A DNA stretch of 64,000 nucleotides from an uncultured Clostridia bacterium (GTDB taxonomy: Bacteria > Bacillota > Clostridia > TANB77 > CAG-508), in the NCBI GenBank assembly GCA_944386325.1, contig CALXAP010000001.1:38610-102609 (forward strand), read 5' to 3'. Position 1 is the stretch's first letter; each line of letters begins with the position of its first letter. The notes below the pieces were generated by a model. The model searched no databases, was not told the origin of the DNA, and saw nothing but the letters and a program-made list of their open reading frames with translations. Position numbers and translations under genes: made by a program. Shown here one piece after another: positions 3,229 to 51,522 of the stretch.

Positions 3229-3609
3229 ATAAAAACCTCACAGTAATCATTTAATATTATTGATAAAATCTAAAGTTAATTTTATATTAGTACTAATTAT
3301 TTGTAAATATATTTTGATAAAAAATCAGGGAAATTTACATTATTCTTTTAAGAATAATACAAGAGTTTAATTTGAAATTACCAAAAATAAATATATTATT
3401 TTATCGGTCTCACATGCTCCGTAAGTATGAGCTTACGATGTACAACTACCTCGACTGTCCAAAATAATATATTTATTTTTTCAGTTATAATCCTTCAGGT
3501 ATATTTATACAATTTAAAAAAATATAGCTGTAGAAATGTAGGGTCGAACAGTGTTCTCCCGAACTTCGAAGAAATTGCTTAAAAAGAGTAAAATATAAAA
3601 CTTAATTAA

Positions 3610-7558: not shown

Positions 7559-7706
7559 TATAAAATCCTCCTCTCAAAAAAACATTTTTATTTATTAGCA
7601 ACCTAACTATTATACAATACCATTTTTTAATTGTCAATATAATTAGACACCTAAATAATAATTTTTTATTTTATATATTTAATTAATCAAAAATTTAATG
7701 TATTTT

Positions 7707-7822
7707 TTATTTGTAACTCCCAGCGTCGCACAGTCTGTAAAATAAAAGAGAAAGTAATAAAAAATTATCTAAACAGACTGTAAGCTTGCTGGTCCCCACG
7801 AATTGTTACTTCATAAAAAGTA
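7707..7822. repeat. structured intergenic repeat element, copy 1 (with 31-nt apical insertion)
   Basis: TTTATTTGTAACTCCCAGCGTCGCACAGTCTGT...ACAGACTGTAAGCTTGCTGGTCCCCACGAATTGTTACTTCATAAAAAGTA. Near-identical to 30737-30823 apart from an insertion in the loop. Nested inverted repeats ACAGTCTGT/ACAGACTGT and CCAGC/GCTGG. Confidence 0.6.
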
Positions 7823-10837: not shown

Positions 10838-10951
10838 ATAAATGTTTTTCGCTAACTGGTGTGCGAACCATAAAAAGACCAGTTCATAAATGTTTTTCGT
10901 TAACTGGTGTGCGAACTATAAAAAGACCAGTTTATAAATATTTAAAAGACC
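10838..10951. repeat. 48-bp tandem direct repeat (2.4 copies), each unit with internal hairpin AACTGGT...ACCAGTT
   Basis: Units 10838-10885 and 10886-10933 differ at 4 positions. Partial third unit follows, then hairpin GACCTTGC...GCAAGGTC at 10947-10972. Confidence 0.6.
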
Positions 10952-30676: not shown

Positions 30677-30736
30677 TATCTAGAAAATTAATGTTACAGC
30701 TTAATAAAAGTAATATAAAAAAATTAAATATAACTT

Positions 30737-30823
30737 TTTATTTGTAACTCCCAGCATCGCACAGTCTGTAAAACAGACTGTAAGCTTGCTGGTCCCCACG
30801 AATTGTTACTTCATAAAAAGTAT
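30737..30823. repeat. structured intergenic repeat element, copy 2 (compact form)
   Basis: 87 nt, near-identical to 7707-7822 minus the 31-nt loop insertion. Followed by a T-run, so it is positioned as a terminator for the ytvI-like gene. Confidence 0.6.
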
Positions 30824-37799: not shown

Positions 37800-38633
37800 A
37801 TGAATATAAAAGAATGTTTAGAATGGGGTTATGATAAATTAAAAAATTTTGATAACTATAGAAATATCTGTATATATATATTAGCAGAGATTTTAAATAA
37901 AGATAATGTATATATAAAAGTTCATTATTTAGATGAAGTAGAGGAAGAAAATTTCAAGAGATTTATACAAAGTATACAAAGTTTTTTAAATGGAAAACCA
38001 ATACAATATATTAATAACAAAGCATATTTTATGGGATTAGAATTTTATGTAGATGAAAATGTTTTAATTCCAAGATGTGATACTGAAATACTTGTAGAAG
38101 AAGTTATAAACATAATTAAAAAAAATAACATAGTAAAAGTATTAGATTTATGTACTGGAAGTGGCGCAATAGCAATTTCTCTGAAAAAATATATGAAGGA
38201 TATTGTAGTGACTGCTAGTGATATTAGTAATAATGCACTTAGTGTGGCAAAAAAAAATGCCAAGAAAATTGGAGTAGATATAAAATTTATAGAGTCAGAT
38301 TTGTTTAATAATATTAATGAAAAATTTGATTTAATAGTTTCTAATCCTCCATATATAAAAAAAGATGTTATTCCAGAATTAGATATACAAGTAAGAAATG
38401 AACCAATAATAGCTTTAGATGGAGGAGAAGATGGGTTAAAGTTTTATAAAACAATTATAAAGGATTCAAAAAAATTTTTAAATAAAAATGGATTTTTATG
38501 TTTTGAAATTGGTTTTGATCAAAAAAAAGATGTAACGGATATATTAATGCAAAATGGATATATAAATGTTTATAGCAAAAAAGATTATGGAAATAATGAT
38601 AGAATAATTGTTTGTAATTATAATGGAGGATAA
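37800..38633 (+). CDS. prmC: release factor glutamine N5-methyltransferase PrmC (HemK)
   Basis: SAM motif LDLCTGSGAIA and catalytic NPPY (VSNPPYI). Confidence 0.8.
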   Translation: MNIKECLEWGYDKLKNFDNYRNICIYILAEILNKDNVYIKVHYLDEVEEENFKRFIQSIQSFLNGKPIQYINNKAYFMGLEFYVDENVLIPRCDTEILVEEVINIIKKNNIVKVLDLCTGSGAIAISLKKYMKDIVVTASDISNNALSVAKKNAKKIGVDIKFIESDLFNNINEKFDLIVSNPPYIKKDVIPELDIQVRNEPIIALDGGEDGLKFYKTIIKDSKKFLNKNGFLCFEIGFDQKKDVTDILMQNGYINVYSKKDYGNNDRIIVCNYNGG

Positions 38634-51371: not shown

Positions 51372-51522
51372 AAGAATAAACTCCTTTCAAAATAAAACAT
51401 AATGTTTACCTAAATATATTATACCAATATTATGTTAATTAAACAACAATAAATTACTTATACTTATTATAAGTAAAACTTATACATATACATATTATAA
51501 AAAACATATTTTTGATAATAAA

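Follow-up and report, generated by a model that had tools for sequence, protein, structure and literature searches.

Two copies of an intergenic hairpin found in the DNA of an uncultured Clostridia bacterium probably belong to an undescribed family of non-coding, non-autonomous mobile palindromes of the MITE, ERIC or REPIN kind, the core of which would be a handle for a trans-acting enzyme acting on the folded single strand, with any effects on mRNA being secondary. The DNA that was analysed, referred to below as the window, is a stretch of 64,000 nucleotides (positions 38,610 to 102,609 of contig CALXAP010000001.1). The original prediction, made from the letters of the window, offered a small RNA gene, a MITE-like element or a protein-binding site as alternatives. 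Of these, the MITE-like element fits best. The repeat is multi-copy, intergenic, and present in some but absent from other related strains at three sites.

Copy 1 is a long form. Its full nested palindrome covers ~198 nt (7660−7857 of the window, + strand) and folds into a single hairpin at −52.7 kcal/mol (z = −8.5), within which the continuous hairpin, composed of an outer AT stem and the conserved core, is found at 7690−7836 (+ strand; covariance-model match at 7677−7848, 152.3 bits). The conserved 5′ inner arm, GTAACTCCCAGCGTCGCACAGTCTGT (7713−7738, + strand), is followed by an AT-rich apical segment (7741−7771, boundaries ±3 nt, + strand), which marks the long form and is homologous to other long-form apices (e.g., those of loci L041 and L048), and by the conserved 3′ inner arm (7773−7809, + strand), which includes the unpaired sequence TCCCCACGAATT (7793−7804). 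Copy 2 is a short form with a full nested palindrome of ~190 nt (30685−30875, + strand; −52.8 kcal/mol, z = −8.8) and a continuous hairpin at 30716−30836 (+ strand; covariance-model match at 30707−30848, 150.1 bits). Here, the conserved 12-nt bulge TCCCCACGAATT resides in the 3′ arm at 30793−30804 (+ strand) and is unpaired in the minimum-free-energy structure. The region 30715−30845 of copy 2 has a fold energy of −44.1 kcal/mol (z = −10.3), and that of its opposite strand is −46.7 kcal/mol.

The two copies had been described as near-identical outside an insertion, which is confirmed by an alignment of the + strands. Outside the apical segment there is one difference, at the single R position (G7726/A30757). 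Within the window there are exactly two occurrences of the 26-nt 5′ arm and two of the 37-nt 3′ arm, while 100 shuffles yielded no match, i.e., no chance match is expected. Each copy contains the nested inverted repeats ACAGTCTGT/ACAGACTGT, CCAGC/GCTGG and GTAAC/GTTAC, and the G+C content is, as stated, higher than that of the surroundings: 0.34 (copy 1) and 0.39 (copy 2) over the intervals assigned at the outset and ~0.49−0.50 in the core, compared to 0.258 for the window and 0.17−0.21 for the flanking intergenic DNA. The extra 31 nt of copy 1, which are AT-rich (~7741−7771), are placed by the alignment in the apical loop, where they had been predicted. The predicted size of ~90 nt was an underestimate that accounts for the core only; weaker outer pairing stretches the nested palindrome to ~190−200 nt in each copy (~7660−7857 and ~30685−30875). 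The outer stems of copies 1 and 2 are unlike in sequence, each being perfectly self-complementary. The statement that the element is present twice holds within the window, where a covariance-model search retrieved just these two copies, but not for the genome as a whole, where the family comprises about 30 copies.

Copy 1 is located, as originally described, in the gap between divergent genes encoding an MFS protein and an M23 peptidase, and copy 2 in the gap between convergent YtvI (PF01594) and DUF1980 (DUF1980_C) genes. Because the promoter of the MFS gene, a perfect sigma-70-type TTGACA-17-TATAAT (7609−7637, − strand), is found between this gene and copy 1, the latter lies outside the MFS transcript and is left without an upstream transcript. 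A consensus scan of the window gave no terminator-like site at either copy. An intrinsic terminator is rejected on these grounds and on account of the AT-rich stem base; the initial view of a dispersed repeat instead of a simple terminator is supported. A number of other identities were rejected as well. The R″/R′ boxes of an integron attC site do not fit and the copies are dispersed rather than arrayed; a retron msr-msd is at odds with the high copy number and the lack of a reverse transcriptase; none of the cre, 0A box, LexA box and parS operators fits (by comparison with consensus sequences only); and the likeness that CCCAG...TGTAAGCT..CTGG bears to the ERIC core is an 8-mer-level match of chance size.

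Other repeated sequences are also found in the window. Two tandem 48-nt units, 94% identical (ATAAATGTTTTTCGCTAACTGGTGTGCGAACCATAAAAAGACCAGTTC), are located at 10838−10933. An 88-nt block is duplicated at 3607−3696 and 4174−4263 (567 nt apart, 86% identity) and includes a palindromic TTATAAGTAATACTTATAA and a promoter-like TTTACATAAAAATGAGGTATAAT, with a weaker third match at 51464. In addition, the regions ~20100−21850 and ~42075−43850, ~22 kb apart, are paralogous coding regions that are 70−89% identical across several blocks.

The extent of the family was determined by scanning an exact 18-mer of the 3′ arm (GCTGGTCCCCACGAATTG) against one genome per species. The scan matched 54 loci, 48 of which are found in 14 species-representative metagenome-assembled genomes (MAGs) of uncultured Clostridia (one labelled Bacilli), the other six being matches by chance within genes of high G+C content from unrelated phyla. 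The MAG of the window's species, BRZ_MK__bin25, harbors 30 exact matches and two variant copies, and 13 further species representatives among the MAGs of uncultured Clostridia carry the family. Outside the window, a covariance model derived from 44 copies retrieved variants in which the bulge reads GGTTCCCAC or GGTCCCCCCGAAT(T/A)G. The search for further copies that the original prediction had proposed was thus positive. The copies are all intergenic, and the elements span 120−200 nt without an open reading frame. Comparison with Rfam revealed no known family: at the gathering threshold there were no matches in the window or in 13 related loci, and at E < 10 the two copies gave noise only (e.g., snoR03, rli51 and U1A_PIE; best score 20.5 bits against a threshold of 48 bits). 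Searches with blastn gave no match in plasmids and phages and a 24-nt chance match (E = 4) in 5,426 E. coli genomes; a scan of viral contigs for both arms gave no match, and JGI metagenomes scanned with the 5′ arm yielded one real copy (L073) and two chance matches inside unrelated genes. A literature search on MITEs or hairpin repeats in Clostridium found no relevant report, and a 2024 review of MITEs does not mention Clostridia (the string “Clostridi” occurs zero times; PMC10969869).

A second dispersed long-hairpin repeat, referred to as family B, was observed in the same genomes. It has a ~20-bp perfect AT stem and an unrelated, G+C-richer core, CGTAMGCTCATACTTACRGAGC, and is found at 3383−3481 of the window (− strand relative to L060), at L060:1071−1197 and at L065/L066:11099−11215. 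At L060 the family-B copy abuts a copy of the family described here (family A).

The full element is a nested foldback of ~176 nt in the short form and ~200 nt in the long form. The short-form consensus is AGAAAAAyCTAATGTATTTTTTATTTGTAACTCCCAGCATCGCACAGTCTGTAAAACAGACTGTAAGCTTGCTGGTCCCCACGAATTGTTACTkCATAAAAAGTACATTAGrTTTTTCT. The core, TTTGTAACTCCCAGC...GCTGGTCCCCACGAATTGTTAC, is G+C-richer and conserved in sequence, carries the 12-nt bulge on its 3′ arm and includes three GTAAC-containing repeats among its conserved motifs, while the outer stem is AT-rich, variable in sequence and always paired. Because the copies were found by means of an 18-mer that contains the bulge, TCCCCACGAATT is invariant in the 44-copy alignment by construction; covariance-model matches that lack the exact 18-mer carry one or two substitutions in the bulge or in the GGT/G next to it. 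An outer inverted motif, GTAACTATTC...GAATAGTTAC, is found at a fixed distance in 12−13 of 51 copies (about a quarter), with GTAACTATTC at −55 to −58 and GAATAGTTAC at +48 to +54; in most copies, including both in the window, it is absent or degenerate. A control in the wrong orientation gave 5−7 matches that were mostly scattered, some clustering at −60 to −63, where the outer motif is partly self-complementary. The spacing of the outer motif sets the full length of the short form at ~176 nt, in agreement with the ~175−185 nt by which filled alleles exceed empty ones. In mouse and rabbit MAGs the element is also seen embedded in a larger palindrome (L027, L028, L047, L008 and L023 of MGBC143692; L040 of Lapin-023), the outer modules of which, (T)TGCCAGAGGGGAGGGAC-TTTTT-TGGCAA, fold with G-U pairs only on the G-rich strand; at L028 the scan scored the outer hairpins as terminators, facing inward from both sides.

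The apex is highly variable in length. Across the family, the span from CCCAGC to GCTGG is 20, 32, 38, 60−65, ~100, 178 or 195 nt, where 32 nt is the majority short form, 38 nt is found in a mouse-gut MAG, 60−65 nt is the long form (the sole or main form in several species), and 20, ~100, 178 and 195 nt are single copies. The long-form apices group in subfamilies (L041/L048 and L038/L051), with copy 1 resembling L048, and the fact that these subfamilies are recognisable indicates that long forms have multiplied too. The 31-nt insertion is therefore the marker of a widespread long-form subfamily with a hypervariable apex, and, since the long form is common in several species, copy 2 may as likely be a deletion derivative. 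The argument that an apical insertion that leaves all stems intact reveals a selected RNA structure consequently fails: the apex is hypervariable, and a DNA palindrome predicts the same pattern.

The pairing itself is maintained. In the 44-copy alignment, the fraction of paired cells is 96.5%, and both sides have changed in 22 of 46 pairs (174 cells), a signal that was reached by none of 500 shuffles and that no slid register comes close to, i.e., the check for compensatory changes was positive. Most of the covariation is carried by the outer helix, as exemplified by columns 20/243 (CG 24, UA 16, GC 2, AU 2). The two strands are equally stable, with mean fold energies of −53.5 and −54.4 kcal/mol, and the 32 G-U pairs compare to 22 A-C mismatches, numbers that become equal when two inherited states are set aside. 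The single frequent T-G pair (columns 29/235, 15 copies), which alternates with C-G and T-A, looks like one inherited state. Since neither strand folds better than the other and G-U pairs are not more common than A-C mismatches, no strand-specific RNA is indicated.

These data bear directly on the proposal that the copies are independently transcribed small RNA genes, with C-rich single-stranded motifs (CUCCCAGC and GUCCCCAC) that would base-pair with Shine-Dalgarno regions. Two UCCC-type motifs are indeed found in or beside unpaired regions of the + strand, and at L040 and L047, which belong to other species, a promoter-like site matching 11 of 12 positions is located directly upstream and points into the element. 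However, the upstream flanks are unconserved, promoter-like sites before the window copies or the other copies of this species are not above the level of shuffles, and the model would require ~30 near-identical genes per genome at non-conserved positions, without a match in Rfam and with a structure that is symmetric between the strands. We therefore consider this explanation very improbable, and the small RNA gene option of the original prediction is argued against by the strand-symmetric fold, the absence of a G-U excess, the lack of a conserved promoter and the unconserved positions.

Different parts of the element are conserved in different ways. Among the long-form copies of this species, the identity is 95.6% in the inner arms, 74.5% in the outer stems and 72.8% in the apices, where shuffled apices give 66%. 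The sequences of the loop and outer stem are near saturation; the core is held in sequence, the outer stem in pairing only. Neutral parts that are saturated next to a core that is 96% conserved imply that the copies are old and that each core is under constraint, which could reflect a function at the level of the host and not only competence for mobility. A neutral repeat that had recently undergone a burst would not leave this pattern; the core is read by something, and the fold is of importance.

The reader of the core could in principle be a host protein, e.g., a nucleoid-associated protein, gyrase or a recombinase that binds a site or a cruciform at the DNA level, making the repeat an element of genome architecture as proposed for REP/BIME. 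Sequence conservation of the core motifs with their three GTAAC-containing repeats, the strictly intergenic location and the persistence of the core beside saturated positions are all compatible with such a role. On the other hand, no candidate protein was identified, presence and absence between close strains mean that individual sites are dispensable, and an outer stem in which the pairing is conserved but the sequence is not suggests that a folded single strand is recognised rather than a duplex. From these considerations, a binding or cruciform site appears quite improbable.

Complementarity of the arms may also be maintained by template switching. The copies at L017 and L047 have had their 5′ inner arm rewritten into a perfect complement of the 3′ arm, and such rewriting is a signature of template-switch correction of quasi-palindromes, which is a DNA-level process. 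Replacement of the 5′ inner arm by the 3′-arm complement, or a partial duplication of the apical stem, is seen at L017:2651−2792, L047:41−188 and L043:6753−6905, and suggests frequent template switching within the palindrome.

The positions of the copies are mostly lineage-specific, and related strains differ in the presence of the element at three sites. At the site of copy 2, the same two genes are separated by 11 nt in an 89%-identical relative (L062/L063), where the gap is associated with a small hairpin, TATCTAGAA-gcttaat-TTCTAGATA, the arms of which are still found on either side of the insertion in the window. The gap is 2 nt in a 72%-identical relative (L064), and in a 68%-identical relative this YtvI/DUF1980 gap is taken up by a family-B long hairpin. 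Copy 1 is absent from strains L067/L068, in which the intergenic region is ~184 nt shorter (192 nt compared to 376 nt) and which retain the orthologous copy between Lon and rplS at 99% identity; in L069/L070 the copy 1 site is filled. The third site, 25506−25531 of the window (+ strand), is an empty allele that is filled in the MAG CALXBW01 (locus L010, ~1400−1580), where the copy resides behind the gene that ends at 25515 in the window, between the stop codon and an ordinary terminator hairpin (AAAAAATCTCG-ATTAA-CGAGATTTTTT, with the loop TTTAA in the MAG allele). The window thus represents a strain different from that of the species-representative MAG.

Comparison of five syntenic blocks between species showed in each case the element next to the block in one partner only. 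In rabbit-gut MAGs, L044:1462−1746 and L057:1180−1420 have flanks that are 97% identical, while in one of them the core is inverted relative to the flanks and one arm is deleted. The L044 apex carries a different MITE of ~100 nt, which has the ends TTTTTTTCATAAC...GTTATGAAAAAAA and a 10-bp target-site duplication, TATAATTATA. A further rearrangement is seen at L025 (~2010−2060), where one of three orthologous loci (the others being L050 and L055) has an extra 47-nt insert upstream of the element that duplicates a nearby terminator-like hairpin, ACTGTTGCTTTTGCAACA. For the family itself, no clean target-site duplication was found in 46 copy flanks or in the three comparisons of filled and empty sites, the junctions being blurred by AT-rich divergence. 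When the flanks are read by eye, TA often abuts GTAAC/GTTAC, but TA is self-complementary and the DNA is ~80% A+T.

A gene that would mobilise the element was searched for in several ways. No transposase or RAYT-like gene was found next to copies or between paired copies, and the genes located between closely spaced copies are housekeeping genes (FtsW, MurG, M23 peptidase, HtpX and similar). A tblastn search for an IS200-type TnpA in 681 kb of locus DNA, a weak test with an approximate IS608 TnpA as query, gave chance matches only (ClpB and an SpoVT/AbrB-like gene). Neither widely spaced pairs of outer motifs enclosing a transposase or gene cassette nor, in ~680 kb of locus DNA, a parent autonomous IS with matching ends was found.

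The orientation of the copies is biased. In all genomes, 23 copies are placed between tandem genes in sense and 10 in antisense, with 7 between convergent and 6 between divergent genes; the corresponding numbers for the window's species are 15, 3, 6 and 3. The + strand coincides with the G-rich strand in 27 of 32 scored entries (one of which duplicates copy 2 of the window). Such a bias fits either selection on transcripts or strand-specific, replication-coupled insertion, since gene direction and strand skew are confounded in these genomes. The latter type of insertion has been described for single-stranded DNA transposons (cited in PMC3116915).

Selection on transcripts is the basis of a model in which the repeat is a cis-acting RNA of 3′ untranslated regions, i.e., a long hairpin, with an A-run on one side and a T-run on the other, that functions as a bidirectional terminator, mRNA stabiliser or RNase III/Y site, and that has been spread by duplication and kept by the host. 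The excess of sense over antisense copies between tandem genes in this species would be explained, as would the observation that most copies start 0−70 nt past the upstream stop codon and that copy 2 and six others lie between convergent genes. The very stable hairpin, the strong covariation and the conserved core are also in line with this model, and MITEs with effects of this kind are known (e.g., Correia/RNase III, ERIC/RNase E and SPRITE; PMC10969869). Yet the orientation bias is subject to the confounding with replication and coding-strand skew, and the strands fold equally well, with no excess of G-U pairs over A-C mismatches. No copy was scored as terminator-like in the consensus scan; the stem by the T-run is AT-rich and the T-run itself is paired. 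Furthermore, six copies lie between divergent genes and copy 1 is upstream of the MFS promoter, rplS has an ordinary terminator of its own ahead of the Lon/rplS copy, and close relatives manage without the element at the same gene pairs. On balance, a primary role as a 3′ untranslated RNA is unlikely.

From the above discussion, the mobile palindrome remains the preferred explanation. The element would be copied by an enzyme supplied in trans that recognises the conserved, asymmetric core in the folded single strand. The strand asymmetry, in combination with an outer stem that is conserved in structure and not in sequence, points to single-stranded DNA, as with HUH/RAYT-type or other hairpin-reading enzymes. 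Template-switch correction of quasi-palindromes would help the arms to stay complementary. An element that resides behind a gene would be transcribed along with it into a long hairpin, which may lead to stabilisation, processing or weak termination of the mRNA, presumably as a side effect and not as the reason for which the family exists.

The closest known systems each share part of this description. As with ERIC (127 bp, classed as a MITE), the element is an intergenic imperfect palindrome of ~120−130 nt; ERIC is co-transcribed with neighbouring genes and folds as RNA, as would be expected of the present element. Size variants of ERIC reportedly originate from internal insertions and deletions at fixed places, and we know of no enzyme that mobilises ERIC. 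A further likeness is the presence of tens to hundreds of copies, the number of which varies by strain and species (PMC10969869). The two differ in host phylum and in sequence (the E. coli blastn search gave the 24-nt chance match only), and the present family has a longer nested foldback, a conserved one-sided 12-nt bulge and a hypervariable apex.

REPIN-RAYT systems are known mainly from Proteobacteria, and no RAYT gene was found near the copies of the present family. A REPIN is composed of two inverted REP units of ~25 nt, i.e., its ends are conserved and the variable spacer is in the middle of the hairpin, whereas the conserved blocks of the present family are ~35−50 nt and central, the outer stem and apex being variable. 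Singlet half-elements are found in the present family as rare truncations (L019, L031 and L057). Both are non-autonomous repeats that form hairpins, in which the arms are highly conserved, the middle less so, and compensatory changes common, and both persist over long times by vertical inheritance. REPINs lack classical terminal inverted repeats and a target-site duplication; in the present family no clean target-site duplication was found and the outer inverted motif is recognisable in about a quarter of the copies. Recognition as folded single-stranded DNA has been proposed for REPINs (PMC3116915).

The family is also small, non-coding and multi-copy with presence/absence polymorphism, as expected for a MITE. 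Classical MITEs, i.e., Correia/NEMIS of Neisseria, RUP of S. pneumoniae and bcr1 of the B. cereus group, are AT-rich, give long RNA hairpins when transcribed and form size classes by internal deletion. Correia elements, for example, occur in forms of 100−155 bp. The intergenic location, the presence/absence polymorphism and the nested insertion of elements into one another are likewise shared (PMC10969869). In contrast to the present family, in which the outermost motif is found in about a quarter of the copies and neither a clean target-site duplication nor a parent IS was found, classical MITEs have defined terminal inverted repeats that match those of a parent IS, and their target-site duplication is clear (TA in the case of Correia). 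Finally, a dispersed terminator-like repeat of a Firmicute with flanking A- and T-runs (PMC10969869, PMC3049150) is similar in appearance, as compared by description only; the present element is much longer, has an AT-rich stem by the T-run and is not scored as a terminator.

A more far-reaching, and rather doubtful, interpretation is that the core (GTAAC, CUCCCAGC and GCUGG together with the one-sided 12-nt bulge UCCCCACGAAUU) is the recognition module of an undescribed hairpin-reading system of Firmicutes. The repeat could then be a REPIN-like single-stranded DNA element that is served by a domesticated single-copy HUH or other enzyme or, alternatively, a structured RNA that has an activity of its own and spreads as a repeat. 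If such a system exists, family B, with the same architecture and an unrelated core in the same genomes, would be a sister system.

Repeats of this type were previously undescribed in this clade of uncultured gut Clostridia, which is known only from metagenomes and to which a characterised repeat family and a sister family are now added. The family accounts for assembly breaks and long intergenic hairpins in these MAGs, and its filled and empty sites provide ready markers for typing of strains. More generally, it offers a clean natural example of structure-preserving evolution from which no RNA gene follows, which calls for caution in the discovery of non-coding RNAs on the basis of covariation. 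Should the core turn out to serve as a handle for a hairpin-reading enzyme, the Firmicutes would have to be included in REPIN-type biology.
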